DNA of 64,000 nt from an uncultured Clostridium sp. (GCA_930987745.1 CAKNKX010000006.1:799-64798), one strand, 5' to 3'; counted from the stretch's first letter, positions 9,183-26,059 are shown. Program-made: numbers and translations. The notes: a model not told the origin generated them from the sequence alone.

Positions 9183-9217
9183 TAATAATCACCTACCTTC
9201 TTAGTAAAATACTTTTT

Positions 9218-9457
9218 TTAGAAATTAGAAAAATCATATTTTACTTTTTTCTTTGGTTCTTCTAGACTATCTTGAATATATTTGTCTAGAATTTCTTTTG
9301 TGAATAGTGTTTTAGATTCAATTTTGTAATATGGTATTTTCTTTTCTCTTACTAATTTACGAATTAGCCAATATGAAATACCCAAATATTCTGCTGCTTC
9401 TACTGAATCTAAAACTCTTTTTTCTTTTGTGTTTTCATTTAATTTCTCACTATTCAT
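9218..9457 (-). CDS. Excisionase-type (MerR-like) helix-turn-helix DNA-binding protein
   Basis: 79 aa. VLDSVEAAEYLGISYWLIRKLVREKKIPYYKI is a typical Xis/AlpA-like HTH. It is the first gene of the operon divergent from the repressor. Confidence 0.7.
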   Translation of the reverse strand: MNSEKLNENTKEKRVLDSVEAAEYLGISYWLIRKLVREKKIPYYKIESKTLFTKEILDKYIQDSLEEPKKKVKYDFSNF

Positions 9458-9623
9458 ACTATCACCTCCTTCTTTATTCTCATTATGCGTACATAATATA
9501 ATATTTTATTTGTTTTGTAAATACTTTTTTTGAGATTTTTTATGATTATTTTAGTTTTAAATGTTTACAAATAGTATTTTATTGTATATAATGTCCTTAA
9601 TTAGTGAGGGGGAAATTTTTACA

Positions 9624-10604
9624 ATGGATAAGTTTAATTTTGGTAATCGTTTGAAACAATTGCGTAAATCATATGGTATTACACAAGCACAATTAGCAGA
9701 AAATTTAAATGAAAGAAGGGCTACTTTATCAAATTACGAAAATAAGAATGTGTATCCAGGATTTAATATGTTAATAAAATTGGCTGATTATTTTCATGTT
9801 TCTGTTGATTACTTAACAGGAAGAACTGATGATTATGAAGTCAATAAACATGATAAAGAAGATACTTTTTATTGGGTTAAAATCTCTAAACCAATACCTT
9901 ATGAAAAAAATAAATATGGAATTTATGCTTTATCTAATGATACTGATATTGAATTTTATGATTTATCAGATTTGAAGAAAAAATATACTAGAATTTATTT
10001 ACCTTTTTTGGGATGTGCACCTGATGCTAAATCTCATTTAAAAGAATGTTATGACTTTTTATCTGAATTTGGATTTTTAGGTGGTACTGAATATAATGAT
10101 CAGTATTTAAATGTTTCTATGTTTAAAAAGCAATGGCCTGGAATTTATAAAATAAACAATGAATTTAATATTTCTACTATGGATTTTTTAGTAAATTTAG
10201 TTATGATGGATCCTAATCTATTTAGTAGTTCAAAAGAAGAAAAGGCTTTTGCTAAAGAACATTCACTAATGGGCTATAGAGAAACAATTCATGATGTTGA
10301 ATATTTAGCAACAGAAATGAAATCATTAGTAACCATTTTTTTACTTTACCCTAGTATATTTATATCTAGAACAAATGAGAAACTTAGAGGTATTAACTTC
10401 TATTATGATAATTCTTATAAAAGAAGGTTTACTTTTACTTCTCTTCTTTCTTATATGTATTATGAACTAATAGAAGATTATATTAATGGGTATTATCCTT
10501 ATAAATGCAATAAATGTAATAAATATTTTTTATCTAGAATAAAGGATAATCCTGAATTACCACATATTTGTGATGATTGTAAAAAACAAGGAGGTTCATT
10601 ATGA
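9624..10604 (+). CDS. XRE/cI-type HTH repressor with a large C-terminal domain ending in a Cys4 cluster
   Basis: I moved the start to the ATG at 9624 (MDKFNFGNRLKQLRKSYGITQAQLAENL), which has a GAGGGGGA RBS about 10 nt upstream. The track start at 9561 would overlap the TTTACA-17-TATAAT promoter. The C-terminus contains CNKCNK...CDDC. Confidence 0.8.
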   Translation: MDKFNFGNRLKQLRKSYGITQAQLAENLNERRATLSNYENKNVYPGFNMLIKLADYFHVSVDYLTGRTDDYEVNKHDKEDTFYWVKISKPIPYEKNKYGIYALSNDTDIEFYDLSDLKKKYTRIYLPFLGCAPDAKSHLKECYDFLSEFGFLGGTEYNDQYLNVSMFKKQWPGIYKINNEFNISTMDFLVNLVMMDPNLFSSSKEEKAFAKEHSLMGYRETIHDVEYLATEMKSLVTIFLLYPSIFISRTNEKLRGINFYYDNSYKRRFTFTSLLSYMYYELIEDYINGYYPYKCNKCNKYFLSRIKDNPELPHICDDCKKQGGSL

Positions 10605-11086
10605 TAAAAATAATAGAATATGATTCGATCTATGATGAACAAATAAAAGACTTATTAATAGAATTACAAAATTATCTTATTGATATAGATGATTGGCATA
10701 CTCAAATTTTATCAGACAACTATCGCGAAGATTACTTTAAAATGGATTTAGAACTTATTAACAAACAGAATGGAAAAATATTTTTAGCAATTGAAGATAC
10801 TAAAATTATAGGATTAGTTCTTGGTGCTGTAAATCTAAATGATGAAATAGACAAACTAACAAATGATTGTGCTAAAACAGGTAATGTATTAGAACTAATA
10901 GTTAAAAATTCTTCACGTGGTCATGGCATTGGAAAATTGCTCTTAAAAAAAATAGAAAATCATTTTAAAAGTATTAATTGTAAAAGAATAAACATTGAAG
11001 TTTTTGGTCCTAATAAAAGTGCTTTAGACTTTTATTTAAAGAACGATTACATAGTTAGAGATTATATTGTAAGTAAAAAAATATAA
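10601..11086 (+). CDS. GNAT family N-acetyltransferase
   Basis: 161 aa with motif A SSRGHGIGKLLLKKIE. It overlaps the repressor stop by 4 nt (ATGA). Confidence 0.8.
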   Translation: MIKIIEYDSIYDEQIKDLLIELQNYLIDIDDWHTQILSDNYREDYFKMDLELINKQNGKIFLAIEDTKIIGLVLGAVNLNDEIDKLTNDCAKTGNVLELIVKNSSRGHGIGKLLLKKIENHFKSINCKRINIEVFGPNKSALDFYLKNDYIVRDYIVSKKI

Positions 11087-11116
11087 TACTTATTATTTAT
11101 AGAAAAGGGTGATTAA

Positions 11117-11617
11117 ATGAAATCTAAATATATTAGACAAGGCATTATTTTTACTATTGATATGATGTTTCTTCCCTTGATTATAACTTTACTTTCAAAT
11201 AATTGGGAACCCATAGCTAATTTCAATGATGGATTGCAACGTTTTATTACATATATTGCTATTTATGAGTTTTTAGCCTTTTTAATAAATAAAAATCAGC
11301 TAGACGCTAGGAAAGATAGTTTATTAATCTATATAACTATTTTAAAAGAAACATTATTATTCATTGAAAATCCTGGCTTTACAACTTTAAAAGATAGCAT
11401 ATTAAATAAAATAAATAAATTGAATGACAAATCATATTATTTCATTCATGAAGATGTATTAAAAGCCGTAAATTCAATAAAATTAGGTATATCTAACAAT
11501 AATTTAACAAATAAAAAAGCTTTTTTAGAAGCTGAATTAATTAATGCAGAACATCACTATGAATCAGAAGGTTTGTCTTGGAATAATACACTTTTATTAA
11601 AGTTCTTAAAAAAATAA
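11117..11617 (+). CDS. Hypothetical protein (N-terminal hydrophobic segments)
   Basis: 166-aa ORF between the GNAT and integrase genes on the same strand. No recognisable motif. Confidence 0.5.
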   Translation: MKSKYIRQGIIFTIDMMFLPLIITLLSNNWEPIANFNDGLQRFITYIAIYEFLAFLINKNQLDARKDSLLIYITILKETLLFIENPGFTTLKDSILNKINKLNDKSYYFIHEDVLKAVNSIKLGISNNNLTNKKAFLEAELINAEHHYESEGLSWNNTLLLKFLKK

Positions 11618-11634
11618 TATGTCTTCCCTACCAC

Positions 11635-12843
11635 ATGAAAGGAGGTGATGAAGGTGTGGTAGGAAATATCGAAAAACGTGGAGAGAATTCATACAGATTA
11701 AGAGTTTCTGGTGGATATACAGGAGAAGGAAAAAGAATTATCTATAAAAAGACAGTTCAAGCCAAAAACAAAAATGAAGCTAGAAAAGAATTAGCATTAT
11801 TTATATCAGAAATAGAAACAGGTCAAGCTTTATCTGCAAAAAAGATGCGTTTTAGGAATTATGCTGATTTTTGGATTGACCATTATGCAATTCCAAATTT
11901 ATCTCCTAAAACCTATGAAAGATACAAAAGTATGTTAAGGTCAAGAATTCTCCCCTATCTCGGCAACATGTATTTAGACAAAATTCAACCAATGCAATTA
12001 ATGTATTTATACCAAGAATTGAGTGAGGCAACTTATATTAGAAAAAATATCAAACATAAATTATCTCCCAAAACTGTACTAGAACATCATAGATTATTAC
12101 ATTCAATGTTACAACAAGCAGTATATTGGCAAATGATTCCATATAATCCTGCATCAAGAGTAAGGCCACCTAAAGCTAAAAAAACAAGTATTAATTTCTA
12201 TGATGATGTACAAACAATAGCATTAATAAAAGCATTGGAAGGTGAAGAATTAAAGTTTCGTGTAATTATCCTATTAACAATTTATACAGGATTAAGGCGT
12301 GGCGAAGTTTTAGGATTAGAATGGCAAGATGTAGACTTTAAAAATTCTTCAATCACTGTAAGACAAGCTAGTCAATATGTTTCTTCTATTGGAATTTATA
12401 CAAAAGATCCCAAAACAGAAACATCAAACAGGGTTATTAGTATTCCTGATTCAATTACTAAATTATTAAAAGAATACAAAAGAAAACAATCAGAAAAAAG
12501 ATTAAAATTAGGAGACAAATGGATTAATACTAATCGTTTATTTGTACAATGGGATGGTTCTCCTATGCATCCAGATACAATTACAAAATGGTTTAGGCAG
12601 TTCCTAGAAGATAAAAACTTGCCACATATTACATTTCATGGATTACGCCATACACATGCAACTTTGCTTATTGCACAAGGATTAGATGTTAGAACTGTTA
12701 GTAATAGATTAGGACATGCTCAAACATCTACAACATTAAATATCTATGCCCATGCATTCGCGAGAATGGACAGAGAGGCATCAGATAAACTTGATAATCT
12801 TCTTTATAGGGAAGATACAAAAAAATATTTTAAAGCCAATTAA
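11635..12843 (+). CDS. int: Tyrosine-type site-specific integrase
   Basis: 402 aa. The catalytic region contains LRRGEVLGLEW (Arg I) and HGLRHTHATLLIAQGLDVRTVSNRLGHAQTSTTLNIYAH (H-x-x-R ... H ... Y). Confidence 0.92.
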   Translation: MKGGDEGVVGNIEKRGENSYRLRVSGGYTGEGKRIIYKKTVQAKNKNEARKELALFISEIETGQALSAKKMRFRNYADFWIDHYAIPNLSPKTYERYKSMLRSRILPYLGNMYLDKIQPMQLMYLYQELSEATYIRKNIKHKLSPKTVLEHHRLLHSMLQQAVYWQMIPYNPASRVRPPKAKKTSINFYDDVQTIALIKALEGEELKFRVIILLTIYTGLRRGEVLGLEWQDVDFKNSSITVRQASQYVSSIGIYTKDPKTETSNRVISIPDSITKLLKEYKRKQSEKRLKLGDKWINTNRLFVQWDGSPMHPDTITKWFRQFLEDKNLPHITFHGLRHTHATLLIAQGLDVRTVSNRLGHAQTSTTLNIYAHAFARMDREASDKLDNLLYREDTKKYFKAN

Positions 12844-12932
12844 AGGCTTATCACATAAATTTATACAAAAAATTGAAAGGAAAAAATTCTATGAAAAATT
12901 ATAATAATAAAGAAGTAAATCAAGACATGATA

Positions 12933-13000
12933 GTTTCTGCTTAAATACTTTTAATTAATTTCACAATTTAATATTTTATAATTTAAGCAGAAACTTTTTT
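12933..13000 (+). terminator. Long-loop hairpin plus T-run downstream of int
   Basis: GTTTCTGCTTAAAT (12933-12946) pairs with ATTTAAGCAGAAAC (12981-12994) and is followed by TTTTTTATTTT. The loop is large, so terminator strength is uncertain. Confidence 0.4.
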
Positions 13001-13175
13001 ATTTTATTTCAAATAGAATTTAATCAAATATATTTATAAATATCGAAAATTCAAGGTTTACCAAAAACCTTTTTATATAGATTTGTGCCCAAATGGTGCC
13101 CAATTCATTTTATGTAATGTAAAATGAGCAAAAAATAAAGAGTCCACAATCTCTTGCGACTCTAAGTTTAAATCT

Positions 13176-13220
13176 TGGTTGCGGGGGTAAGACTCGAACT
13201 TACGACCTTCGGGTTATGAG
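13176..13220 (-). pseudogene. Orphan 3' half of initiator tRNA-fMet (anticodon-loop core CTCATAA through CCA)
   Basis: The reverse complement is ctcataacccgaaggtcgtaagttcgagtcttacccccgcaacca. It differs at one base (g for a in the variable region) from the 3' part of the intact tRNA at 25979-26054. No 5' half follows it. Confidence 0.85.
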
Positions 13221-13361
13221 AAATGGAATGCATTTTTCGTTTTTTCTATTATGTTTTAAAGAGCGCTATTCTGTATAGTTACAGCATAACACTCTTTTAT
13301 TATCTACTAATAATTCTATTATTTTTTAGGTTGGTAGGGGTATTTTTAGGGGTAAAACTTC

Positions 13362-13793
13362 TTATTCCTCATATTCGATATTATTTTTCTGACACCATTC
13401 TATTGCCATATTTTTTAGATACTCTTCTCTAAAATTATAGTAATCATTTTCTATTCTAAATTTCCTTAATGTTTCTTTAAATCTCCTATATTTTCCTTTG
13501 CCATAAAATGCATCCTCTAATTCTTCTTGTATATTTTCATTTTTTATTTCATCAATATATTCTTCTACCAATTCTGAATCATGAAATACATATGAACTTG
13601 GTAAATAATAATATCTTTCTTCTTCGTCTTCTTCTATTTTATCAGTTAATTCTTCATATTCTTGCATTGACATCATATTAAGATCTATAAAAATAAAATC
13701 ATTTTTCTTTTTATCATATACAATATACTCATAATTCTGTATTTCATCAAACATATCAACTAATTCATCTAATTTAAGTTTCATGTTTTTCAC
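13362..13793 (-). CDS. Small acidic protein, UPF0158-like (assignment from memory)
   Basis: 143 aa and highly acidic (EEDEEERYYYLPSSY...). The C-terminal segment is YGKGKYRRFKETLRKF. It starts 7 nt after the stop of the AEP-helicase gene, so the two are probably co-transcribed. Confidence 0.6.
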   Translation of the reverse strand: MKNMKLKLDELVDMFDEIQNYEYIVYDKKKNDFIFIDLNMMSMQEYEELTDKIEEDEEERYYYLPSSYVFHDSELVEEYIDEIKNENIQEELEDAFYGKGKYRRFKETLRKFRIENDYYNFREEYLKNMAIEWCQKNNIEYEE

Positions 13794-13800
13794 TCCCTTC

Positions 13801-16146
13801 TTATTCTATAATCTCATATCCTGCAATTTTATATCCTTTTAATCTTCTATTATACATCTTTTCTAGAACTTTCATATTATCTAAATAATCATACACTATT
13901 ACTTTCTCTTTATCTTCATGCTCTCTATGCAATCTTCCTACGTATTGTATAATTCTTCCTTTCCATGAAACTGGCATAGTTAGAAATAATGTATCTAATC
14001 TACTATCATCAAATCCCTCTCCTATTGAACTACTTGTTGCTAATATTATCCTTGGTTTATTGTTTTTATCTGCTTCATCTATGACATCTTGAATTTCTTT
14101 AGTTTTCTTTTTTCCCATATTCCCCTTATACGCCACCACTGGTACATTTAAATTTTCTAAATTTTCCTTCAAAACTTTTAAATGTTCTACTCTTTCAGTT
14201 AATACTATAGGAACTCTACCTTCTAAAATGCATTTATTTATATCTTCTATTATCATACTATTTCTAAAAATATTATGGCACATATCGTTAAGGATTTCTG
14301 AAATTTGTATTTTATCTTTTTCTTCAGTTGGAATGTATTTATAATTAGTCTTTTTTACAATTACTGTATGTTCCATTTCTTTATTCTGTTTTAATTCGCG
14401 ATGGCTTACCCTAACTCTTATATCGCCACACTGCATATATATTATTTTATGCCATCCATCTTTCCTTGTTGGTGTTGCAGTTAAACCATATACATGTTTA
14501 CTTCTTACAGCTTTTAATACTTTTTCGAAGCTATATGCAGCAGCATGATGACATTCATCTACAATAACTAATCCATAATCTTTAACTAATTCTTCCAAAT
14601 TATCTTTTTTAAATAAAGATTGAAAACTTGCAACATCTAATTTTCCATTTGGTTTTTCTTTACCGCTACCAATTTGTCCTATTTCTTTTTTATTTATATT
14701 TAAAAAATATGATAACCTTTCTTTCCATTGTTCTAACAGATTATTTCTATTAACTATAACTAATGTATTAGTTTTTAATTCTGAAATAATTTTAGCTCCC
14801 ACTACTGTTTTTCCAAATCCTGTTGTAGCACATAATACTCCTACATCATGTTTTAGTAATTCTTTCATTGCTTTTTCTTGCTTATTATTTAACTTTCCAT
14901 CAAACTTGTAGTCTGTTCTAATTCCATTTTCTCTTGTATCTTTTACTATTAAATTGACATTGCTTTTTTTACATATTTCTGAAACTTTATCTATACAACC
15001 TCTTGGCAATTTCAAGAATCTTTCATCATCTTCAAAACAGCTTATTATTCTAGGTGTTGTTTTATAAAATATTGGCATTCTTAATTTTTGTAATTCATAA
15101 AATTTCGGATTAGTGAAACTGGCTAATCTTTTTAAATAAGTTATTTCATTTGGTAGTAATTTTAATTTTTTAATATATATTTGATTATCAAATATGCACT
15201 CCACATTGTTTGTAAATATAGTATCTTTAATATTTTCCTTTTTAGGTATTTCATCATCATCTAAGATTTCTTCTATTTCAGGTTCTTTATAATCATCTTC
15301 TTTGTATTTATCAATAAATGCATATATTTCATTGCATTTCATTCTTTTTATATTGTTTAAAATGTTTATTTGATTTTTCTCTACTTCAAAATATTTATCT
15401 ACAAAAACTGTATTTCCACTTTTACTGCTTTCACCTTGAAATGGTAAAGCTATTAAATTTCCAAATCCGCCTTTTGGCATTGTATCTTGGTTTGGAAATA
15501 ATCTATCATATGAATCCAAGTCCAAAGATGCTTTTTCCATTGTCTTAGTTAATAGTATATTACCCATTTTTCTAGCAATTCTAGCTGGTATACTTTCCTC
15601 AAAAAATATCCAAATATGTGCTCCATTTCCTGAACGAGATTTTTCTACATATATTGGTATATCTGATTCATCACATATATTCCAAAATGCAGCTACATCT
15701 TTTTCGAAAGTTTTCTTATCAAAATCTATTGCTAAAAAATTACATAAATCTCCTGGTAATAATGGATATATTCCTATTGTAATCTCACCCTTTAAATGCT
15801 TTAAGATTATATCCTCTGTTAATGGTGTTAGTTCTCTAAAAGGACATTCATTACATTTTACTCTTGGCTTATCACATTTATATGTACTAAATTCATTCTT
15901 ACAAACTGGTGAATATCCTGATTTTCCAGTTTTATTACTTGTCCATCTTTTTGCATATAAATCAGTTCTTCCCTTAAATACTTCCATAAAGATTTTTACT
16001 TTTTCTTCATTAGAAATAACTTTTTCTTCTTTTTCAACTTCTTTTTCTTCTATTTTTCCATATAGCTTCTCTTTTAATTCATTATTTTCTTTTTCTAATT
16101 TTTGTATTATTTGTATCAATTCTTTTTTATCTAAATCCTCTAACAA
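13801..16146 (-). CDS. Archaeo-eukaryotic primase (AEP/PrimPol)-like domain fused to an SF2 DEAD/DEAH-box helicase
   Basis: 781 aa with an N-terminal coiled coil and Cys cluster (CKNEFSTYKCDKPRVKCNEC). AEP motifs are LAIDFDK (DxD), SRSGNGAHIWIFF (sGxGxH) and FPNQD...GFGNLIALPF. Helicase motifs are ATTGFGKTVVG (I), VIVDECHHAAA (II), GLTATPTR (III) and QYVGRLHR (VI). Confidence 0.85.
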   Translation of the reverse strand: MLEDLDKKELIQIIQKLEKENNELKEKLYGKIEEKEVEKEEKVISNEEKVKIFMEVFKGRTDLYAKRWTSNKTGKSGYSPVCKNEFSTYKCDKPRVKCNECPFRELTPLTEDIILKHLKGEITIGIYPLLPGDLCNFLAIDFDKKTFEKDVAAFWNICDESDIPIYVEKSRSGNGAHIWIFFEESIPARIARKMGNILLTKTMEKASLDLDSYDRLFPNQDTMPKGGFGNLIALPFQGESSKSGNTVFVDKYFEVEKNQINILNNIKRMKCNEIYAFIDKYKEDDYKEPEIEEILDDDEIPKKENIKDTIFTNNVECIFDNQIYIKKLKLLPNEITYLKRLASFTNPKFYELQKLRMPIFYKTTPRIISCFEDDERFLKLPRGCIDKVSEICKKSNVNLIVKDTRENGIRTDYKFDGKLNNKQEKAMKELLKHDVGVLCATTGFGKTVVGAKIISELKTNTLVIVNRNNLLEQWKERLSYFLNINKKEIGQIGSGKEKPNGKLDVASFQSLFKKDNLEELVKDYGLVIVDECHHAAAYSFEKVLKAVRSKHVYGLTATPTRKDGWHKIIYMQCGDIRVRVSHRELKQNKEMEHTVIVKKTNYKYIPTEEKDKIQISEILNDMCHNIFRNSMIIEDINKCILEGRVPIVLTERVEHLKVLKENLENLNVPVVAYKGNMGKKKTKEIQDVIDEADKNNKPRIILATSSSIGEGFDDSRLDTLFLTMPVSWKGRIIQYVGRLHREHEDKEKVIVYDYLDNMKVLEKMYNRRLKGYKIAGYEIIE

Positions 16147-16321
16147 AGCTATCTCACTCCTTTTTAATATCTCTATTTTATCATATTTTTGAATTTTAAT
16201 TAAATTATGTAAATTGTGTTGAATTATTTTATTTTCTGTGCTATATTAATTATATTATTTTCATATATTTTTTCTTTAATCTTCCCCACAAAAAAATTTC
16301 ATAGGAGGTGACTTTATAGTT

Positions 16322-16663
16322 TTGAATTTATTTGAACCAATTATAAATAGCTTAGATAATGCTATTCATAAAAGTAATTTAAAAGATTCTTTTATAGATG
16401 ATTTTATTCATGATTTACAAAGATATATGCTAAGGCAAAATTTGGATTATGATTATAGTAAACTACCTAAAAGTACTATATTTGAAGTTGATTATATTGA
16501 AGATGGTTTTGCTTCTTGTTTAGACACTTCTCAAAAACATTCAGAAAAATATTGCATTCCTTCAGAACTTCTTGACGAATCTGCCAAAAAAGCTGATTAT
16601 ATTCAATTTGATGGTACTAAATATACTGCTGTTTCTAATCCTTATCAAAAAGATTCTAACTAA
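16322..16663 (+). CDS. Hypothetical protein
   Basis: 113-aa ORF with a TTG start 9 nt after an AGGAGGTG RBS. It is divergent from the AEP-helicase gene. Confidence 0.5.
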   Translation: MNLFEPIINSLDNAIHKSNLKDSFIDDFIHDLQRYMLRQNLDYDYSKLPKSTIFEVDYIEDGFASCLDTSQKHSEKYCIPSELLDESAKKADYIQFDGTKYTAVSNPYQKDSN

Positions 16664-16790
16664 TTTTAATAAAAAAATAAGAACATATATCAAATATGCT
16701 CCTATAACTTACCTTATTTGCTCCATCTAAATTTAACTCTTTTAATTTTTCAATTATTATACTATTACCATCACTTTTAAGCCATATAGT

Positions 16791-17213
16791 TCACTGATTC
16801 TTTGTTATAAATATATTACTTTCTTCCACTCCTGCTTCTTTTAATCTTTCTATGACACTTTGATCTGGATGGTTATAATTTTCATTATTTCCCGCAGATA
16901 TAATTGCATAAGTTGGTTTTACTATGTTCAAAAATTCACTTGATGTCGATTCTTTTGCTCCATGATGTGCAACTTTTAGTACGTCTACTTTTTCCAATCC
17001 TTTTATTTTACTATCTATACTATCTGTTATGTCTCCTGTAAATAAATATTTTGTACTTCCATAATCAAGTTTAATAACTATTGATGTATCATTAAATCTA
17101 TTTTTGTCGCTTGAATTAGAATTGTCAACATTTAAACATTTCCATATTGCATTTCCTAACTTATATTCTTTGTCTTCTGACTTTTCTATTTGTTGCTTGT
17201 TAATATGTATGTG
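16791..17213 (-). pseudogene. 5'-truncated metallo-beta-lactamase-fold (ComEC C-terminal-like) gene fragment
   Basis: The minus-strand frame is open from about 17213 and reads ...IVIKLDYGSTKYLFTGDITDS...VDVLKVAHHGAKESTSSEFLNIVKPTYAIISAGNNENYNHPDQSVIERL. This matches the TGD and HHG motifs of MBL/ComEC domains. The N-terminal part is missing and the frame ends at the IS terminus. Confidence 0.7.
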
Positions 17214-17219
17214 TCAAGT

Positions 17220-18918
17220 AAATGTAGGCAATTTTTTTATCTTTTTTTCTAATCCTTTAAATGCCATTGCTTCCAACACTTTATTTATTTTTTTGTTCTT
17301 TTAATAAACAAATTAATAACTTAATCTTAATTCGCTTATATCTCTACATTTCAATATTTTATTTATAAAATTATTTTCTATATGTCCTTTTTGTATTCCA
17401 ACTCCTTCTTTTGTTTTTTCTGTTGCTACAAAACTATCTTTTCTCGTTCTATTTTTTCTTACATTTTCTTCTATTTCTTTTATCCAATCTTCTACACTTG
17501 TATCTATTGGTATTGGTGTTTCTAATTCTTCTAAACTAAACTTTTCGCTTAATACACATATCTTTGCTAATGCATTTGCTCCATGCTCACTAAACGCTTT
17601 TCTTCCACTACAAAATCTTTTCTTTAATTTACTAAATATCTGACTTTCTTGTGTTCCCATATTTCTGTATTCTACTCCTTCTGGTGCCTCTGGTACTTCT
17701 ACTATATCTTGATATCTTTCTAGTCCACTACTTAAATAGCTTTGTAATGTATTTAATTTTTTTACTGCTTTATATTCTCCTCCTAATTCTACTTTTAATC
17801 CCTCTATTGTTTTTTCTATCTTATCATATTGTTTTGTTTTCACTAATTCTTCTACTATATTTCTATATTCTTTTGGTACATCCCTTACTATTTCTTGCAT
17901 TATATGAAACTGATCCTTTTGATATATTCTTCCTTTTGCTGTTATTCCTTTTGTCCACTTCGCTCCATCTCCATTTACTACTCTTAATTTTATTTTCTCT
18001 ACATCATATTGTTGATATACTCTTGCATCTCTTAATTTCTTTATTTCTTTTGGTTTCATCATTCCTGCTATATATTGCTTATTTATTAATGGATGCCTTT
18101 TATCATCTTTTTTCCACCCTTCATACATTACATGCAGTTTTAATTCTGTTTTGATTTTTTGCTTTGGATTAAATTCTTTGTTTTCTTTTTCACATTTCTT
18201 TTTATTTTCTTCTAATCTTTCTTTTCTATCTTTTCCTTGTAAATTTATCCACAATCCATCTGCTTCTTCAAACAGTGCTATTATTTCCTTCAATCCTGCC
18301 ACTAGTTGTCCCTTATCCAACATTTTCCTTTCTTCTTTTTCTTTCTTTGTTATTTTGTCTCCCAATTTTACTACAATATTTCTTATCCATTCAAAACTTA
18401 ATGTCGCATTTGTTGTTTCTTTTAGTACTGTTTCTGCTTTTCTATATGAATCTGTTATTGGTACTGTTTCTACTATTTTTTCTACTAAATTTTCTGATGC
18501 TTTTCCTTCTGTATTTATATGCAATTTTTCATCTAGTAAATACACTCTTTTCTTAATTCCTTCTTCCTCAACCTCATACATTGCCCTTACATATTCTACT
18601 TCTCCCATTACTGTTTTTATTGTATTTTTTCTTAATCCTTTATGCCTATATTTCTTCGTATCTCTGGCTTTCATTATCTTTCTGCCATAACTTTCTAAAA
18701 TTAATTTTATTATTAAACATCCAAAATTACATACAAATTTAAATATTTTTTTCTCTAAATTATTGAATTTTATTTCTTCTTCTGTTACAATTTCTTCAAA
18801 CATAGATATTTTCCTTTCTTTTGTGTGGTTTGCAATTCACATTTTAAAGGATTATCTATGTTTTTTCAATATTTTTTAGATAAAAATTATGTAGGCATTT
18901 TATATTTTGCCTACATTA
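17220..18918 (-). mobile_element. ISLre2-family-like insertion sequence (approximate ends)
   Basis: A single transposase gene is flanked by inverted termini, AAATGTAGGCAA (17220-17231) and TTGCCTACATT (18907-18917). No clear target duplication was seen. Confidence 0.55.
17313..18803 (-). CDS. ISLre2/UPF0236-family transposase
   Basis: 496 aa. The N-terminus MFEEIVTEEEIKFNNLEKKIFKFVCNFGC...KYRHKGLRKNTIKTVMGEVEY resembles UPF0236/ISLre2 transposases of Clostridia and Thermoanaerobacter as I remember them. Confidence 0.7.
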   Translation of the reverse strand: MFEEIVTEEEIKFNNLEKKIFKFVCNFGCLIIKLILESYGRKIMKARDTKKYRHKGLRKNTIKTVMGEVEYVRAMYEVEEEGIKKRVYLLDEKLHINTEGKASENLVEKIVETVPITDSYRKAETVLKETTNATLSFEWIRNIVVKLGDKITKKEKEERKMLDKGQLVAGLKEIIALFEEADGLWINLQGKDRKERLEENKKKCEKENKEFNPKQKIKTELKLHVMYEGWKKDDKRHPLINKQYIAGMMKPKEIKKLRDARVYQQYDVEKIKLRVVNGDGAKWTKGITAKGRIYQKDQFHIMQEIVRDVPKEYRNIVEELVKTKQYDKIEKTIEGLKVELGGEYKAVKKLNTLQSYLSSGLERYQDIVEVPEAPEGVEYRNMGTQESQIFSKLKKRFCSGRKAFSEHGANALAKICVLSEKFSLEELETPIPIDTSVEDWIKEIEENVRKNRTRKDSFVATEKTKEGVGIQKGHIENNFINKILKCRDISELRLSY

Positions 18919-19002
18919 ATTTTACACTAACTTTTTCACCCGTGTAAACTTTAAAAATTCTTTAATAAATAATTTAAGATATTTTAATTTTATGATCCTC
19001 AA

Positions 19003-19362
19003 TTATTTTAACTTTTCCCATTCACTTTCTTTAAAACCAACAAGTATTTTTTTGTCTGATATAAAAATAGGTCTTTTTATAAGCATACCATCACTTGCAA
19101 GTAAAGATATTTTTTCTTTATCAGTCATGGTAGGTAATTTTTCTTTTAGATTTAATTCTTTATATTTCATCCCACTTGTATTAAACCATTTTTTAATATC
19201 TAATCCACTTTCTTTTATCCACGAAGTTAATTCTTTATCTGTTGGAGTTTCTTCAACTATATGTCTATCTACAAATGCAATTTTATTATCTTCTAACCAT
19301 TTTTTAGCTTTTTTACAAGTTGAACATTTTGGATATTCTATAAATAAATTTTTCATTCTCAA
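19003..19362 (-). CDS. ArsC/Spx-family (arsenate reductase-like, YffB-type) protein
   Basis: 119 aa with an N-terminal CSTCKKAKKWL motif and a C-terminal LLASDGMLIKRPIF motif, both typical of the ArsC/Spx fold family. Confidence 0.85.
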   Translation of the reverse strand: MRMKNLFIEYPKCSTCKKAKKWLEDNKIAFVDRHIVEETPTDKELTSWIKESGLDIKKWFNTSGMKYKELNLKEKLPTMTDKEKISLLASDGMLIKRPIFISDKKILVGFKESEWEKLK

Positions 19363-19476
19363 TTCTCCTTTTAATTTTTTTATATATTATCATATTCTAC
19401 TTAAGAATGAAAGCCATTTTATGTATAGACTTATTATTCAAAAAATAATATAATATACAGAGCAAGGAGGAAAATT

Positions 19477-20130
19477 ATGATTGGTAACCCTATAAATTAT
19501 GATAAAAAACAAACTGATAAACTTCCAAATACACAAGCAAAAATTGCCCCAGAATTAAGAAGATATATGAAATTAATAGAAGGAAAAGAAGTTTTAGATT
19601 TAGGTATTGGCCAAGGACAAAATTCAATTTTTCTTTCTAATTTTGGATTTCAAGTTACAGGAGTTGACTATTCTAAACAAGCTTTGGAAATATCTAAAGA
19701 AAACTGTCCTAATCTTAATCTTGTTCAAGATGACATTAGAAATTTTAATATAGGAAAAGACAAGTATGATTTAATATTGTCTAGTAATGTATTACATTTT
19801 CTTCATAAAGATGATTCTTATGAAATTATTGAAAATATTAAATCTAATTTAAAGACAAATGGATTAGCATATATATCAGTATTTTCTATAGATGACACTA
19901 GCTTGGATTTTAGAAAAAACAATCCTGATTTTTATGAATTAGAAAATAATGTTTTCCATAAAAAATCAGATGATACATACATGAGTTATTTTTCTAAAGA
20001 TGAGATTTTAAATCTTTTTTCTGATTTTACTACTATATTTATCTCAGATGAATATAGTTTAGATTTAGGACATGGAAAACCTCATTATCATGGAATGATA
20101 AAATATGTAGGTAAAAAAGGAAATACATAG
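19477..20130 (+). CDS. Class I SAM-dependent methyltransferase (TehB-like)
   Basis: 217 aa with motif I VLDLGIGQGQNS and post-I VTGVDYS. Confidence 0.8.
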   Translation: MIGNPINYDKKQTDKLPNTQAKIAPELRRYMKLIEGKEVLDLGIGQGQNSIFLSNFGFQVTGVDYSKQALEISKENCPNLNLVQDDIRNFNIGKDKYDLILSSNVLHFLHKDDSYEIIENIKSNLKTNGLAYISVFSIDDTSLDFRKNNPDFYELENNVFHKKSDDTYMSYFSKDEILNLFSDFTTIFISDEYSLDLGHGKPHYHGMIKYVGKKGNT

Positions 20131-20206
20131 AAAAAGGAGCTAAATTAAAGTATTTTATAAACTTTATATTAGCTCTTTATTTTTTATTTAAGGCACTTAA
20201 AACCTT

Positions 20207-21001
20207 TTAAACTCCAACACTTTTTGTTTCTGGTAATGTAGAACCACCATCTATTACAAAACTTTGTCCTGTAATATATGAAGATTCATTACTTGCCAAA
20301 AATGCTGCAAGTTCTCCTAATTCTTCTATTGTTCCTAGTCTTTTCATTGGGATTCCATCTGCTATTCCATCCACAACAGATTTTGGATTATTTGAATTAG
20401 AATCTTTTGCAATTCCTTCAACCATTGGTGTCATGATATATCCTGGAAGTATTGCATTAACTCTAATTCCTTTTTCAACTAGTTCTGCTGCTAATCCTTT
20501 TGTAAATCCTAAAAGTGCTGCTTTTGTAGTAGCATAGGCTACTTCTCCTGTATCTGCTACCATTGTTCCTGTTACAGATGAAAGATTAACAATTGCTCCA
20601 TCTTTTGGCATATATGGAACAAAGGCTTTTGAAACATTCCAACTTCCTTTTATATTTATATCAAAGTGATAATCTCTAATCTCATCTGGTGTTTCTAAAA
20701 ATGGTGTTAATTTAGCAACTCCTGCATTATTTACTAATACATCTACTTGTCCATATTTTTCATAAACTTCTTTTGCTATTTCATTTACTCTTTTGCTGTC
20801 TCTTATATCCACTTTATATCCTTCTACAGGTTCACCTTTTTCTTTAAAATCTGCAACAACCTCATCAATTTTGTCTGAATAATCTAAAATAATAACTTTT
20901 GCTCCATGTTTTAAAAATACTTTTACTATTCCTAAACCATTTCCCATAGCTCCACCTGTTACTACAGAGACTTTATTTTCTAATTTCATATTACCCTCCA
21001 A
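20207..21001 (-). CDS. SDR-family oxidoreductase (FabG/glucose dehydrogenase-like)
   Basis: 264 aa with cofactor motif VTGGAMGNGLG, NNAG, and catalytic YATTKAA (YxxxK). Confidence 0.9.
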   Translation of the reverse strand: MEGNMKLENKVSVVTGGAMGNGLGIVKVFLKHGAKVIILDYSDKIDEVVADFKEKGEPVEGYKVDIRDSKRVNEIAKEVYEKYGQVDVLVNNAGVAKLTPFLETPDEIRDYHFDINIKGSWNVSKAFVPYMPKDGAIVNLSSVTGTMVADTGEVAYATTKAALLGFTKGLAAELVEKGIRVNAILPGYIMTPMVEGIAKDSNSNNPKSVVDGIADGIPMKRLGTIEELGELAAFLASNESSYITGQSFVIDGGSTLPETKSVGV

Positions 21002-21011
21002 AATATTTATT

Positions 21012-21392
21012 TTATTCTACTTCTGCTTTCCATAAACCATGTTTATTACAATATGCATATAAAGTTGCACCTTGTATATATGGAAATCTTACTTCTGCTG
21101 TTTGTTCTGGATATAGTTTTACTGTTATTTCTTTATTTTCTTTTACCATACTAATCCATTCAATGTAATGTTCTTTTTCCATTACATGATTTACTTTTAC
21201 TAATAATTCATCTTCTACTTTTTCATATGTTGGAACATGTTTTTCAACTGCTGCATCAACAGAATTTGGAACTAATTTTTCCATTGGTTCTCCACAACAT
21301 ACAATTCCACATCCTTGACAATTGCAATCTTCAATTACTTTTACAATTGCTCCACATGATTTACATTTTTTTATTACTAATTCATTTTTCAT
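21012..21392 (-). CDS. dfx: Desulfoferrodoxin (superoxide reductase, class I)
   Basis: 126 aa. The N-terminal desulforedoxin-like cysteines are CKSCGAIV...CGIVCCG. The C-terminal SOR ligand pattern is EKHVP...H..EKEHYIEW...CNKHGLW. Confidence 0.85.
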   Translation of the reverse strand: MKNELVIKKCKSCGAIVKVIEDCNCQGCGIVCCGEPMEKLVPNSVDAAVEKHVPTYEKVEDELLVKVNHVMEKEHYIEWISMVKENKEITVKLYPEQTAEVRFPYIQGATLYAYCNKHGLWKAEVE

Positions 21393-21541
21393 ACTATCTT
21401 CCTCCTTTTTATGCTTTGATTATATTATTTATTTTAAAACTTGTCTAGTAATTTTATACTAATCTTAAGTATATTTTTTAGTAGCATGCATATAATATAT
21501 AAAGAAATATTTGGTAATTACCAATATTTTAAGATTTTTTA

Positions 21542-21571
21542 TTGACAAATATATTTATATGGGTGTATAAT
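21542..21571 (+). promoter_or_regulatory. Sigma-A-type promoter of the disrupted tRNA-fMet gene
   Basis: TTGACA (21542-21547), an 18-nt spacer ending in TG, then TATAAT (21566-21571). It lies about 18 nt upstream of the tRNA 5' end. Confidence 0.65.
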
Positions 21572-21588
21572 AACAAAGATTTAAACAT

Positions 21589-21626
21589 CGCGGGGTGGAG
21601 CAGTTGGCAGCTCGTTGGGCTCATAA
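21589..21626 (+). pseudogene. Orphan 5' half of initiator tRNA-fMet (5' end through anticodon-loop CTCATAA)
   Basis: cgcggggtggagcagttggcagctcgttgggctcataa is identical to the first 38 nt of the intact tRNA at 25979. Identity ends after CTCATAA, where aaatagggc follows. Confidence 0.9.
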
Positions 21627-21929
21627 AAATAGGGCTACGAAAAAGTCAAACGCTTTACATTTCGGGATTTTTTTATTGCAATGCTTGATACTGTAAGAAT
21701 TGCTAAAATGCAATAAGAAGAATTTAACAGAATTAAAAGGAAATAAAACGAATTAAAATATAAAAAATTTATAAAAAGATTAGGGATAAATTAGGGATAA
21801 GTCAAAAATGAAAATGATAAAATAAAAGTAACCAAAAAAGGGAAAATAAAAACTACCAAAATTGGTTACTTTTTTGATTGCAAAAAAATAGTTTGATATA
21901 CTACTTCTTTGTAAGGAGGAAGTATACAA

Positions 21930-23159
21930 ATGAAAGAAAATATAAAGTTAAAAAATATGAAAGGACAATTAGAAATAATGAAAACCTTAGGAATAAAGCC
22001 GAATTTTAGTGAATTAGAAAGAGCTTTTGAAATAGAAAGACATACAATAAAAAAATATTATGAAGGATATGAAGGAAAAAAAGCAAATAGAAATAAACCA
22101 TCGAAATTAGATAAATATTATGATGAAATTAAAAGTAAAATAGAATTAGTAGGAATTACTCAAATGGGATTGTACCAATATTTATACAATAAAGATAATT
22201 CCATAGGAACTTATTCAAATTTTAAAAAGTATTTAACAAAGCATGAATTAAAACCAAGTAAAAGTCAAAAAGTTCATTTAAGATATGAAACAGATTCCGG
22301 AGAACAGTTACAATTTGATTGGAAAGAAGATATAAAGATGATCAGCAAACATGGAGAAGTATTTGAATTTAATGTATTTTCTGCAACTTTAGGATATTCT
22401 AGATTACATGATTTTGTATATAGTAGAACAAAAACCAGAGAAGATGTAGAAAGATGTTTAATGACAACATTTAAATTTTTCAATGGTGTACCTAAACAAT
22501 TGTTAATTGATAACATGAGAGCAGTAGTTGATATTAATGGAAATAAAAGAACAGTAAATCCAGAATTTAATCAATTTGCTAAAGATATGGGTACTTGTGT
22601 GAAATTATGTAAGCCAAGGTCTCCTGAAACGAAAGGAAAAGATGAAACAGCCAATAAGTTCATGTCATGGTTAATACCATACAATCATGAATTTGAAGAT
22701 GAAGAAGAATTAATTAGAATTATTAAAAATATAAGAGATAAAGTTAATTCTACTGTTCATCAAACAACTAATGTACCACCTATCCTTTTGTTTCAAAAAG
22801 AAAAAGAATATCTTCTACCTTTGCCAAGCAATAAAGTCATGCTTTCTTACTTGGAAAATGTGGAGAAAACTAAGGTTTATCCCGATTCCTTAATTTACTA
22901 CAAAGGTAAAAAATATTCTGTTTCACCCAAATATATTAATCAGTATGTCCAATTAAAACAAACTGATAATATATTGTATATATATCATAATAAACAAATA
23001 ATAGCAACACATGAAATCAATTTAAAATTAATAAATTATGCTAAAGAACATTATGTAGAAGGTTTAACAATTTCTATGCCATATAAAGATAGATCTGACA
23101 TAGAAAAATATGCTAATGATAATTTGAAACGTTTAGATAGATTATTGGATGTAAAATAG
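21930..23159 (+). CDS. istA: IS21-family transposase IstA
   Basis: 409 aa with an N-terminal HTH and a DDE region (QFDWKE...LLIDNMRAVV...ETKGKDE). Confidence 0.9.
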   Translation: MKENIKLKNMKGQLEIMKTLGIKPNFSELERAFEIERHTIKKYYEGYEGKKANRNKPSKLDKYYDEIKSKIELVGITQMGLYQYLYNKDNSIGTYSNFKKYLTKHELKPSKSQKVHLRYETDSGEQLQFDWKEDIKMISKHGEVFEFNVFSATLGYSRLHDFVYSRTKTREDVERCLMTTFKFFNGVPKQLLIDNMRAVVDINGNKRTVNPEFNQFAKDMGTCVKLCKPRSPETKGKDETANKFMSWLIPYNHEFEDEEELIRIIKNIRDKVNSTVHQTTNVPPILLFQKEKEYLLPLPSNKVMLSYLENVEKTKVYPDSLIYYKGKKYSVSPKYINQYVQLKQTDNILYIYHNKQIIATHEINLKLINYAKEHYVEGLTISMPYKDRSDIEKYANDNLKRLDRLLDVK

Positions 23160-23209
23160 ATAAAGGATTTAAATAATATAAAATTAATAAAAAGAAAGAG
23201 GTAATTTTT

Positions 23210-23971
23210 ATGATATATAATCAAGTAATAAATAATTTACAAAAACTAAAATTAAATAAGATGAGTACATATTTATCAACATATTTAGATGAGATAAATA
23301 AAAATAATATTTCCTTTTTAGATGCACTTCTTAATCTTACTCAGAAAGAAATAGAATTTAAAGAACAAAGAGCTTCTGAATTTAATATACGAGTGGCTGG
23401 GTTTCCTTTTATTAGAACTTTAGATGAATTTGATTTCGATTTTCAACCAAGTATTAATAAAAAAGAAGTTTTAGATTTAGCAACACTTAGATTTATTGAA
23501 GAGAAGAAAAATGTTTTGTTAATTGGGTCTAGTGGTGTTGGCAAAACGCATATTGCAACAGCCATTGGCATTGAAGCTGCTAAAAAAAGAGTTAGTACAT
23601 ATTTCATTAGTTGTCATGATTTAATCACTAAACTTAATATTGCACATCAAGAAAATAGATTAAAGGATGCTTTAAAAACATTTAATAAATATAAGTTATT
23701 GATAATTGATGAGATTGGATATTTACCTGTAGACAAAAATGGTGCAAATTTACTGTTTCAATTAATTGCAAAAAGATACGAAAAAAGTTCTACCATAATA
23801 ACTACAAATCAGCAATTTTCTAAATGGGGAGAAATTTTTTCAGATAATATACTTGCTAATGCAATACTTGATAGATTATTACACCATTCGTATGTTTTTA
23901 ATATTACAGGTGATTCTTACAGATTAAAAGATATATTAAATAAAATGGAAAACTTTGACAATTCTATGTAA
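23210..23971 (+). CDS. istB: IS21-family helper ATPase IstB
   Basis: 253 aa with Walker A GSSGVGKTHIATAIG and Walker B LLIIDEIGYLP. Confidence 0.92.
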   Translation: MIYNQVINNLQKLKLNKMSTYLSTYLDEINKNNISFLDALLNLTQKEIEFKEQRASEFNIRVAGFPFIRTLDEFDFDFQPSINKKEVLDLATLRFIEEKKNVLLIGSSGVGKTHIATAIGIEAAKKRVSTYFISCHDLITKLNIAHQENRLKDALKTFNKYKLLIIDEIGYLPVDKNGANLLFQLIAKRYEKSSTIITTNQQFSKWGEIFSDNILANAILDRLLHHSYVFNITGDSYRLKDILNKMENFDNSM

Positions 23972-24058
23972 TTAAACTTTATCTAAATTGGTAAAAATTA
24001 TTTTCCCTTTTTTGGTAATTTTGGTATTGACTTTTATAAATACCCTGTTGTTTACAGT

Positions 24059-24072
24059 TCACTAATTAGTGA
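24059..24072. promoter_or_regulatory. Perfect 14-bp palindrome TCACTAATTAGTGA (copy 1), a candidate operator
   Basis: Read directly. It lies about 48 nt upstream of the ATG at 24120. Confidence 0.5.
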
Positions 24073-24119
24073 GCATTTCAACGAAACCAGCTAAAAAAAC
24101 ATCTTTAGGAGGTATTACT

Positions 24120-24506
24120 ATGTTAAATATTATTTATGCAAGTCTGGGATTAGCAATTTTGATTTTAGCAGTAATTTATTTAATACTCCTTACTGTCCTT
24201 ATGATTAAGAAAAAATACAGTAATGTAGCAAGTATTAAAGTTCGGATTGTGTTTACATCAATTCTGTGTGCTTTATTTATCATCAAGATAATTCCGGCAA
24301 TAATGCTAGGAAAGTCAATCGTAAGTGAAATCTTTTGTGCAATACTTTGGGCTATATGTACCGTACTAGGCTTTTGGTCTTTACAGGATGCATATAATAA
24401 GGCACGGGACTCTGAATTTTATATCTTTATAAACTCGAGATTTAAAGAGAATGAAGATGTAATAGATGTTGATTTCACAGAAGAACAAGACATTGATGAA
24501 AGATAA
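24120..24506 (+). CDS. Small membrane protein (GC-richer cargo)
   Basis: I moved the start to the ATG at 24120, which has an AGGAGG RBS (MLNIIYASLGLAILILAVIYL...). It has three hydrophobic helices and an acidic tail. It contains two in-frame CGG codons (24243, 24405). Confidence 0.6.
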   Translation: MLNIIYASLGLAILILAVIYLILLTVLMIKKKYSNVASIKVRIVFTSILCALFIIKIIPAIMLGKSIVSEIFCAILWAICTVLGFWSLQDAYNKARDSEFYIFINSRFKENEDVIDVDFTEEQDIDER

Positions 24507-24668
24507 AAGCCGTAACGAATAACATCAGTAAACAACACAGGGAAAAGTAAGAAGCATGGTTTTGGGGAAAGATGAACGATTATGTTCGTCTTTTTCTTTT
24601 GGCAAAATTTGATTTTTATGTGAATATATTGTATAATATAAGTATGTAACATTAGTTATTTCTTATTA

Positions 24669-24682
24669 TCACTAATTAGTGA
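24669..24682. promoter_or_regulatory. Perfect 14-bp palindrome TCACTAATTAGTGA (copy 2), a candidate operator
   Basis: Identical to copy 1. It lies about 84 nt upstream of the ATG at 24766. Confidence 0.5.
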
Positions 24683-24765
24683 GAGGAAAGTCCTCTGGCT
24701 TTTTGGTAATTACACAATGAGAAATAAGCAACGAAAAAAGAATAAATTTATAGGAGGAATTAAGT

Positions 24766-25110
24766 ATGTTACGGAAATTTGTTTGGTGGTTTATCATTTT
24801 TGGTTTGAGCTTTTTAGTTCAAAGCTGGGGTTGGGCAGATCAAGGAACTGCATTCCTTTGGATTCATCTCGGTGGCACAGGACTTCTTCTTGCAGTAATC
24901 TTTTTCTTATGTTGGGTTGCAGGAGATGATTTATATGAGAGACTCGGTCTTTCATTTATAGTTGCCATTATAGGTGCTATAATTCTTGGTGTCACACTGT
25001 TTGCAACTTGGGGTGCTACTCAATTATTTGGTGTAGAATTTACAGTTGCATATCAGATTATGACATTCGGACAGTGCTTGTGCGGAAGCTCCAAAAAAGA
25101 TGACGACTAA
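24766..25110 (+). CDS. Small membrane protein (GC-richer cargo)
   Basis: 114 aa with an AGGAGG RBS and multiple TM segments (FVWWFIIFGLSFLV, GLLLAVIFFLCWV, FIVAIIGAIILGVTLFATW). Codon 3 is an in-frame CGG. Confidence 0.65.
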   Translation: MLRKFVWWFIIFGLSFLVQSWGWADQGTAFLWIHLGGTGLLLAVIFFLCWVAGDDLYERLGLSFIVAIIGAIILGVTLFATWGATQLFGVEFTVAYQIMTFGQCLCGSSKKDDD

Positions 25111-25218
25111 AAATGCTACAAGAATGGGGTGGAGAAAGAAAAAAACTTTCTCCATCTTGTTTTTATTTATTAAGTTTGATATTGTTAATAAAAATGATAA
25201 TTATAAAAGGACTAATAT

Positions 25219-25434
25219 ATGATGTATGAAAAAATATTAAATGAAAATATTGATAGATTAGATATATCTTGCTCAATAATAGACTATTTAAAGAAAAACA
25301 ATATTGAAAAAATAAATCAATTGTGCAAAAATACAAAAAAAGATTTAATTAAATTGAAGATAGATTCTGTAGAAATATTTAATATTGAAAACCAACTACA
25401 ATTATTAGGATTAAATTTAAAAAGTAGTTATTAA
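25219..25434 (+). CDS. Small helix-hairpin-helix protein, RNA polymerase alpha C-terminal-domain-like
   Basis: 71 aa. I recognise the IDRLDISCSIIDYLKKNNIEKINQL pattern as alpha-CTD-like, but only tentatively. Confidence 0.4.
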   Translation: MMYEKILNENIDRLDISCSIIDYLKKNNIEKINQLCKNTKKDLIKLKIDSVEIFNIENQLQLLGLNLKSSY

Positions 25435-25453
25435 TAAATATGGAGAACAAATT

Positions 25454-25799
25454 ATGAATAAATACAGAGGTTTAATAAAATGTGCAGAATGTAATCATAT
25501 ATTCAAACGGACGAAAAGAAAGAAATAATATAAACTATAGATGTAATTATAGATTAAAGTATGGAAAGGACAAATGTAATAATAATACTATGGTGGAAGA
25601 AACATTATTGACAGATATGATTAGGCAACAATTAGATGTTATTAACATGTGTATAGATAATGTAGATATTCAATCTATTGTTAAAGAAATTATTGTATCT
25701 AAAGATAGAATTGAAATATTTTTTAAAAACCTACCAATAATAAGTTGTTATCTTGATAGTAAAATGGGAAAATTGCATTTTGACTCTTTAAATGATTAA
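25454..25799 (+). pseudogene. Remnant of a large serine recombinase (C-terminal zinc-ribbon and coiled-coil part only, with a frame break)
   Basis: MNKYRGLIKCAECNHIFK (frame 0, stop after 24 codons) continues in +1 as GRKERNNINYRCNYRLKYGKDKCNNNTMVEETLL. Together these form the C..C...Y.C...C zinc-ribbon pattern of large serine recombinases. The N-terminal catalytic domain is absent. Confidence 0.6.
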
Positions 25800-26054: not shown

Positions 26055-26059
26055 AATTC

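Follow-up and report, generated by a model that had tools for sequence, protein, structure and literature searches.

How does the gene for an initiator tRNA (tRNA-fMet) come to lie in two inverted halves 8.4 kb apart, in a genome that carries an intact tRNA-fMet gene only 4.4 kb away from one of them? We addressed this question in a 64,000-nt stretch of DNA from an uncultured Clostridium sp. (GCA_930987745.1, CAKNKX010000006.1:799-64798), here called the window, in which the two half-genes delimit positions 13176 to 21626. Our analysis indicates that the half-genes are probably junction scars from mobile elements, all of which recombined at one 7-base spot in the anticodon loop. There is likewise a good chance that the locus is an accretion hotspot, at which two families of tyrosine integrases have acted on a single 7-bp core, CTCATAA, of the chromosomal tRNA-fMet gene. 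The genome is available as a draft assembly of 1.47 Mb in 46 contigs, 89% complete (labelled G000 in the comparisons with other genomes and loci below).

Two half-genes that share an anticodon-loop core

The features on which the question turns are the following.

21589-21626 (+): chromosomal 5' half of tRNA-fMet, displaced; left attachment site (attL), core CTCATAA at 21620-21626
13176-13220 (-): tRNA-fMet 3' segment, island-borne and derived from an element attachment site (attP), core TTATGAG at 13214-13220
21542-21571 (+): native promoter of the chromosomal tRNA-fMet, TTGACA-18-TATAAT, 12/12 match
25979-26054 (+): intact tRNA-fMet, with a terminator downstream

The 5' half is identical to the first 38 nt of the intact gene (38/38), and the shared sequence starts 6 nt 5' of the half-gene, forming a 44-nt direct repeat (21583-21626 = 25973-26016). 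The 3' half matches the last 45 nt of the intact gene at 44 positions, the sole mismatch (CCCGAAGG versus CCCAAAGG) being a G that replaces the A at position 42, the partner of U28. Both contain the 7-nt loop CTCATAA, inverted in one relative to the other, and the lengths of the tRNA fragment matches are far above chance expectation. When 21589-21626 was joined to the reverse complement of 13176-13213, ARAGORN called the 76-nt product a tRNA-Met(CAT), with a U28-G42 wobble. The promoter at 21542-21571 aligns with the promoters of the tRNA-fMet genes of relatives, and none comparable to it was found 5' of the 3' half. Neither half is expected to yield a working tRNA. The only tRNA-fMet that ARAGORN found in the window was the gene at 25979-26054, again as tRNA-Met(CAT), and in the whole assembly there were three matches to tRNA-fMet, namely, this intact gene and the two halves, with no further full-length copy.

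A first-pass annotation of the window had described the two half-genes with their inverted core and the promoter of the 5' half, and had proposed that the halves rejoined give a tRNA-fMet, that the anticodon loop was the target of a tyrosine integrase, and that the DNA to the right of both cores (from 13221 and from 21627 on) is foreign. All of these points are in agreement with our data: the near-perfect matches, the 12/12 promoter, the ARAGORN call, the coincidence of the breaks with the crossover core, and the flanks described below. The assumption that the fragments are the remains of one original gene did not survive, as their origins differ, one being chromosomal and the other island-borne. 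The chromosomal 5' half and the island 3' segment may, however, have been joined temporarily as one hybrid gene.

The 3' half as the end of an integrative island

To the left of the 3' half, the window is occupied by an island with its own integrase gene.

1-13175: island E1, which leaves the contig on its left side
11635-12843 (+): tyrosine integrase int1 (PF00589, 7.7e-30; PF14659, 1.9e-16)

The int1 gene is directed at the 3' half and ends 333 nt from it. We compared it with its relatives at 80 loci (L018 to L097) from gut Clostridia genomes, 70 of which had the same tRNA-fMet 3' segment, ending in TTATGAG, after the integrase. Beyond the core, an intact tRNA followed in 15 of these 70 loci, divergence set in at the very next base in 51, and in the other 4 it began 3 to 6 nt further on. 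The G42 variant of the window 3' half was found in nearly all of the related island segments (67/70). Positions 5941 to 13220 were 94.5% identical to an island in genome G041 (locus L025), and the homology stopped exactly at 13220. Next to the island in G041 come the 5' half of an intact tRNA (-) together with its promoter, orf153 (-), and a block with ComEA, PBP5, and LytR (+), and a degenerate far-end repeat of the tRNA segment lies 22.9 kb away. There is no intact tRNA at the integrase-proximal junction of E1, where divergence begins at 13221, whereas its G041 counterpart has one; the far end of E1 lies off the contig, and no additional 3' half was present in the assembly.

Since the homology to G041 ends at 13220 and the association of an integrase with the 3' segment recurs, the 3' half appears to be DNA of island E1 and not of the host, and CTCATAA appears to be the core of the int1 family. 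The earlier placement of foreign DNA only to the right of the 3' half thus has to be widened: the left side is island as well, with an integrase gene that had gone unnoticed. In the mechanism that we propose, family 1 (int1 and E1) would carry the part of the tRNA that starts at the core and includes the 3' end, and its integration would swap the host 3' half for that of the island, so that 13176-13220 would be island DNA.

Two observations on this set of loci stand by themselves. The share of headless islands, which have an integrase and a lone 3' half (51/70, with an intact tRNA in 15/70), is above what simple tandem accretion would lead one to expect. At L030, L044, and L091, the flank resembles the right arm of a 5'-side element, with part of the 5' strand of the anticodon stem kept; of the three, L030 was the one for which this likeness was checked, by way of genome G045 (L104).

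Element arms on the far side of both cores

The DNA to the right of the two cores begins with two different arms, each followed by other foreign sequences.

13221-13360: arm W_x, a conserved element end of ~140 nt that abuts the core
13362-16663: foreign cargo, with orf143 (-), AEP primase-SF2 helicase (-), and orf113 (+)
13801-16146 (-): TOTE-type AEP primase-SF2 helicase (PF22548, 1e-93; ResIII; Helicase_C)
21627-~21827 (+): arm Z, the left arm of a tRNA-fMet-disrupting family, with repeated TTAGGGAT motifs
~21828-24030, ends approximate (+): insertion sequence (IS) of the IS21 family, which truncates arm Z 200 nt from the core
21930-23159 (+): IstA (Pfam rve/Mu-transposase C-terminal domain)
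23210-23971 (+): IstB (IstB, 5.5e-82)

Arm W_x was also found directly after a 3' half ending in TTATGAG in G043 (L081/L099, 89.7% identity), G044 (L066, 78.8%), and L057 (76%), next to integrases that are only 48 to 49% identical to int1. A homologue of the AEP-helicase (81% identity) lies behind another junction of integrase, 3' half, and core in G042 (L065). A small partner gene (13362-13793, -) is located downstream of the AEP-helicase, and the pair stands directly behind the attachment core.

Arm Z could be traced to a different kind of element. A search for a 5' half followed by CTCATAA and a non-C base, in 401 genomes of the family to which this one belongs, recovered lone 5' halves in 8 of them, this one included, and in 4 (G068, G228, G237, and G399) the flank of the 5' half and core was homologous to 21627-21827. 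The arm is ~76% identical to the left end of a conjugative element found in G228, G399, and G237. Homology to this element stops at the IS21-family IS, which has inverted repeats and is present in a single copy in the assembly.

A conjugative element that cuts the gene and carries its own copy

In G399, the element is 64 kb long and encodes a MobA/VirD2 relaxase, a DnaG-like primase, a 1,724-aa SpaA-fold adhesin, NlpC/P60 and LPD1 proteins, and a 505-aa tyrosine integrase, 26 to 28% identical to int1, located ~160 nt from the right junction (right attachment site, attR). G228, which belongs to another genus, carries the G399 element at 99.97% identity. Because the attR of both keeps just GCTCGTTGGGCTCATAA before the 3' half, no tRNA is rebuilt in either. 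The lone 5' half (C3:84423, CGCGAGG) and the lone 3' half (C3:20460, CCTCGCA) of G399 are 64 kb apart and have in common a private A5-U68 acceptor-stem pair, which shows directly that they belonged to a single gene until the conjugative element inserted. Past the right junction, G399 has a homologue of the window segment from 35.4 to 39.8 kb, and the two have the same orientation.

The element also has an internal tRNA-fMet with its own promoter, and in G399 and G228 the anticodon loop of this cargo gene is interrupted, at CTCATA/A, by a 258-nt group I intron (Rfam RF00028, 84.7 bits, E 8e-22). No other, uninterrupted tRNA-fMet gene was found in the G399 or G228 assemblies.

L120:18972-19229 (= G399:C3) (+): interruption of the cargo tRNA-fMet by the group I intron (RF00028)
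G228:C4:14743-15443 (-): cargo module, 100% identical to that of G399

At the DNA level, the intron breaks CTCATAA, the core of both integrase families, and it might in this way shield the cargo tRNA gene from integrases.

The junction in the window has the short-core feature of these elements, with a 5' half that ends at the core and runs into arm Z. A collinear, uninverted version of such an arrangement exists in G045, where a 5' half and core are followed by a 9-kb element that has both a cargo tRNA and an integrase of its own, a second core, a 3' segment, and an int1-like integrase (92%). We propose that family 2 consists of conjugative elements and smaller relatives, whose likeness to the target would be limited to the core and a few bases on its 5' side; they would therefore cut the gene without rebuilding it. 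Such an element would leave behind a stump (promoter and 5' half, 21542-21626) fused to arm Z and would supply a tRNA-fMet of its own.

Repeated use of the site can be seen in G421 (L117, C1:14100-34050), with three promoter-bearing 5' halves in tandem and cores at positions 51, 10987, and 11215 of the reverse-complemented locus. In G421, G110, and G045, a lone 5' half and a complete tRNA-fMet are separated by a conserved 228-nt unit that contains AAAGGGAC repeats (the loci examined for these tandem halves and for the unit were L117, L106, L112, and L104).

Origin of the intact gene

The sequences on the two sides of the intact tRNA-fMet are of different kinds.

25219-25978 (+): cargo module 5' of the intact tRNA, with orf71, orf105 (zinc-ribbon fragment), and promoter P2
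26055-30700: non-core genes between the intact tRNA and a host ABC transporter, TM2-HNH (-), HTH-DUF6442 (-), DEDDh exonuclease-BRCT (-), and orf171 (-)

Positions 25222 to 26015 are 72.9% identical, over 807 nt, to the internal tRNA-fMet module of G399, with protein identities of 76% for orf105 and 57% for orf71, and the homology ends at the core of the intact tRNA. This homology suggests that the intact gene descends from the tRNA of an element. Judging from sequence alone, at least its promoter and 5' side would be element-derived, and the gene would be either the compensating tRNA-fMet of the element or a hybrid of that with another 3' half. It had been annotated as a second, intact tRNA-fMet with a different promoter, which it is; the notion of an independent paralogue has to be given up, since P2 and the upstream genes match the cargo module. 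The lack of any other intact copy in the draft assemblies suggests that the cell depends on the element-derived tRNA-fMet. In that case, an essential, single-copy initiator tRNA gene has been dismantled by mobile elements without the death of the cell. One family would have swapped its 3' half, the other would have cut it and provided a substitute, and subsequent decay would have left translation initiation reliant on foreign DNA.

We also considered a simple insertion of 21627-26016 together with promoter and 5' half, bounded by the direct repeat. This model accounts for the right side only and was retained as part of the picture and not the whole, because homologous elements in other genomes lack a 5' half at their ends. 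The genes to the right of the intact tRNA were likewise tried as the integrase-proximal part of a conventional island, a possibility that was discarded as there is no integrase remnant in 26055-26634.

With the arms and the intact gene in view, a functional split tRNA gene, with halves transcribed apart and joined or annealed in trans, can be judged to be almost certainly wrong. The likeness to Nanoarchaeum equitans, in which the initiator tRNA is among the split tRNAs, lies in the division of the gene at the anticodon loop, with the halves at separate places, and the perfect promoter of the 5' half would fit. However, the 3' half has no promoter, both flanks are recognizable arms of mobile elements, an intact gene is present 4.4 kb away, and the predicted duplex of the flanks (-4.9 kcal/mol, versus -6.0 ± 2.1 for shuffled sequences) shows complementarity not above chance. 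Trans-splicing of the halves was rejected on account of the promoterless 3' half and the noncomplementary flanks, and bacteria, to our knowledge, lack the archaeal splicing endonuclease. For tRNA annotation and the mapping of islands, this means that inverted half-genes need not signal a split gene or a switch.

Gene order in relatives and extent of the inversion

Between the two half-genes lie an IS and a segment of host genes.

17199-18939 (-): ISLre2-like IS, with a UPF0236 transposase at 17313-18803 (PF06782)
18992-21392: host segment, with orf153 (+), TehB-like methyltransferase (+), SDR (-), and desulfoferrodoxin (Dfx, -), assigned with Pfam

Compared with its counterpart in most relatives, the stretch of the window that begins with orf153 and reaches to the 5' half is inverted. 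The linkage of Dfx, promoter, and tRNA-fMet is kept in G007, G010, G022, L020, and L078, and the order in G041, L075, G010, G022, L020, and L078 is integrase or islands, tRNA (-), then Dfx, SDR, and orf153, and finally the host block (+). Relative to the ComEA block, the strand of orf153 in G041 and L075 is the opposite of that in the window. In G019, SDR adjoins the ABC transporter gene ABC_A, and from ~30673 on the window is again homologous to what lies upstream of ABC_A in that genome. G007 was set aside as a guide to the ancestral order, its genome being too reshuffled. The genes at 26635-30373, which encode a membrane-anchored TM2-HNH nuclease, an HTH-DUF6442 regulator, a DEDDh exonuclease-BRCT protein, and a 171-aa partner, are missing from G019 where SDR meets the ABC transporter.

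The ISLre2-like IS has 33-nt terminal inverted repeats, and its flanks (TGTTGCTT and CCGTGTAA) show no target duplication. An inversion relative to the ancestral order, with one breakpoint near this IS, had been suspected from the window alone, and both parts of that suspicion are upheld, the first by the gene order of relatives and the second by an IS devoid of target duplication at the expected breakpoint. Its extent is another matter, since an inversion of ~18.9 to 30.7 kb is more likely than the previously proposed flip of 13221-21619. The second breakpoint would consequently fall at ~30.4 to 30.7 kb (30374-30670) and not in the tRNA core. Recombination between two IS copies was discarded as the cause: the assembly has one full ISLre2-like copy and one IS21, the second ISLre2-like copy being a 475-nt internal fragment, 95.6% identical, near the start of contig C9 (G000:C9:120-595).

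The draft state of the assembly raises the question of a chimeric contig, joined across an IS or between strains, in which case the halves would not really be 8.4 kb apart. The 46 contigs, the 89% completeness of what is probably a metagenome bin, and the position between the halves of an IS with a second partial copy are all compatible with such an artefact. We nevertheless regard it as improbable, given that both junction types occur in independent assemblies of other genomes, that the second IS copy is only the diverged fragment just mentioned, and that the tRNA repeats (38 to 46 nt) are too short to make a k-mer assembler break the tRNA at a 7-nt core.

A single integrase-driven inversion between the two cores (13221-21619) deserves more weight, although we consider it unlikely. 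The hybrid gene would have recombined with an inverted W_x'-CTCATAA-Z site, and the segment may still flip, toggling a second tRNA-fMet. Both novel junctions stop exactly at the 7-bp core, flipping restores the tRNA, and an apparently intact integrase gene adjoins the 3' half; moreover, the order before the inversion would be collinear with G041, G010, G022, G019, L020, and L078, and W_x'-core-Z is the attP expected of a circular element with these arms. Each junction, however, recurs on its own as an ordinary one in other genomes, that of 3' half, core, and W_x in G043, G044, and L057 and that of 5' half, core, and Z in G068, G228, G237, and G399. The core is asymmetric, W_x lacks an anticodon-stem arm, and a prior illegitimate insertion of an element between orf153 and ABC_A would be required.

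Still more doubtful is that int1 continues to recombine the inverted cores, with the 8.4-kb segment as a live switch. The layout recalls known invertible segments (those of Hin/Gin-type invertases, shufflons, and integrase-driven switches) in that inverted cores flank a segment with a recombinase gene adjacent to it, but the sites in the window share only 7 bp, a single orientation was seen, and the structure can be explained without ongoing inversion. One scan of metagenome contigs found no flipped W_x'-core-Z junction (TTCCATTTCTCATAAAAATAGGGC), and another, for the observed junction of 5' half, core, and Z, gave one match, which by eye was the hairpin of an unrelated terminator behind a gene. 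If the switch were real, the promoter would drive the 5' stump in one orientation and a complete hybrid initiator tRNA gene in the other, and the population would have two dosages of the initiator tRNA gene and two arrangements of the neighboring defence genes.

A possible history of the locus

Recombination by tyrosine integrases at CTCATAA, together with one secondary rearrangement, is common to all of the histories to which we gave weight. In the sequence of events set out here, the most economical that we could find from a G041-like ancestor, E1 would at first have lain beside a minus-strand tRNA. A family-2 element of ~11 kb would then have entered the hybrid tRNA in a G045-like manner, with the order arm Z, orf145, orf105, cargo tRNA, TM2-HNH, HTH, exonuclease, orf171, orf113, AEP-helicase, orf143, and W_x. 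In a third step, the region from ~18.9 to 30.7 kb would have inverted, with the involvement of the ISLre2-like IS, leaving 8.4 kb between the stump and the 3' segment, the two being inverted relative to each other. Finally, IS21 would have cut arm Z, and the integrase of the element would have been lost. A one-element path is the single history that we favor, although at somewhat less than an even chance; a two-element path is a lesser but serious possibility. Both the direct inversion between cores and the remaining histories, misassembly included, are of low probability.

Several observations weigh against the reading of the locus as the work of two integrase families. No family-2 integrase (int_z-like) or right arm was found beyond chance in the window or the assembly, whereas G399, G045, and G421 have both. 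Arm W_x does not correspond to any known family-2 right arm and has no anticodon-stem bases, while family-2 right arms elsewhere keep 3 to 10 nt of the 5' strand; in G043, it forms the distal end of an island of the conventional kind, which has a 3'-side integrase of its own. If W_x belonged to a separate island, an extra integration and a deletion would be required. The junction between orf171 and ABC_A has no IS, and the order of events is not unique. Lastly, further tRNA-fMet copies may be unassembled, as the assembly is an 89%-complete draft.

Relation to known systems

Williams is said to have described in 2002 that islands and prophages with tyrosine integrases lie at tRNA genes, with the anticodon loop as one sublocation. 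The window shares with tRNA-targeting islands an integrase beside a tRNA segment that starts in the anticodon loop and includes the 3' end, a crossover in the loop, displaced tRNA fragments at element ends, and, at related loci (L077, L083, and L030/L031), tandem accretion. It differs from them in that no 5' half adjoins the 3' segment of the island, the same headless state as in 51 of the 70 related loci, and in that the far end of the island is off the contig. Partial tRNA genes at the ends of elements are themselves commonplace (PMC4383910, the Islander database; PMC9897764).

The closest published analogue is the tRNA-dependent lysogeny of actinobacteriophages, mycobacteriophages among them, in which the target tRNA is not rebuilt and a replacement is carried by the phage (Guerrero-Bustamante and Hatfull 2024, mBio, PMC10865867). 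Here, by contrast, the elements are not phages but conjugative elements and small islands in gut Clostridia, the target is an initiator tRNA, and some of the replacement genes have a group I intron. The window element is, furthermore, a decayed remnant, cut by an IS and devoid of an integrase, and dependence on its cargo tRNA is deduced from the copy count. Full-text searches of the literature gave no paper on a conjugative-element or initiator-tRNA version of tRNA-dependent integration, and our data would extend this phage concept of 2024 to elements of these two kinds in gut Clostridia.

Other genes of island E1

Besides int1, the part of island E1 within the window contains the following genes.

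3-1433: HsdM of a type I restriction-modification system (Pfam)
1448-4201: HsdR of a type I restriction-modification system (Pfam)
4370-5305: KwaB-like gene (Pfam)
7880-8746: DnaC-like gene (Pfam)
8706-9182: phage replisome organiser (Pfam)
9218-9457: HTH_17 Xis-like gene (Pfam)
9561-10604: cI-like HTH (Pfam)
10601-11086: GNAT (Pfam)
orf166, in island E1, listed after GNAT

With a type I restriction-modification system and a KwaB-like gene, E1 is a defence-cargo island, which has lysogeny and replication modules and is free of virion genes.

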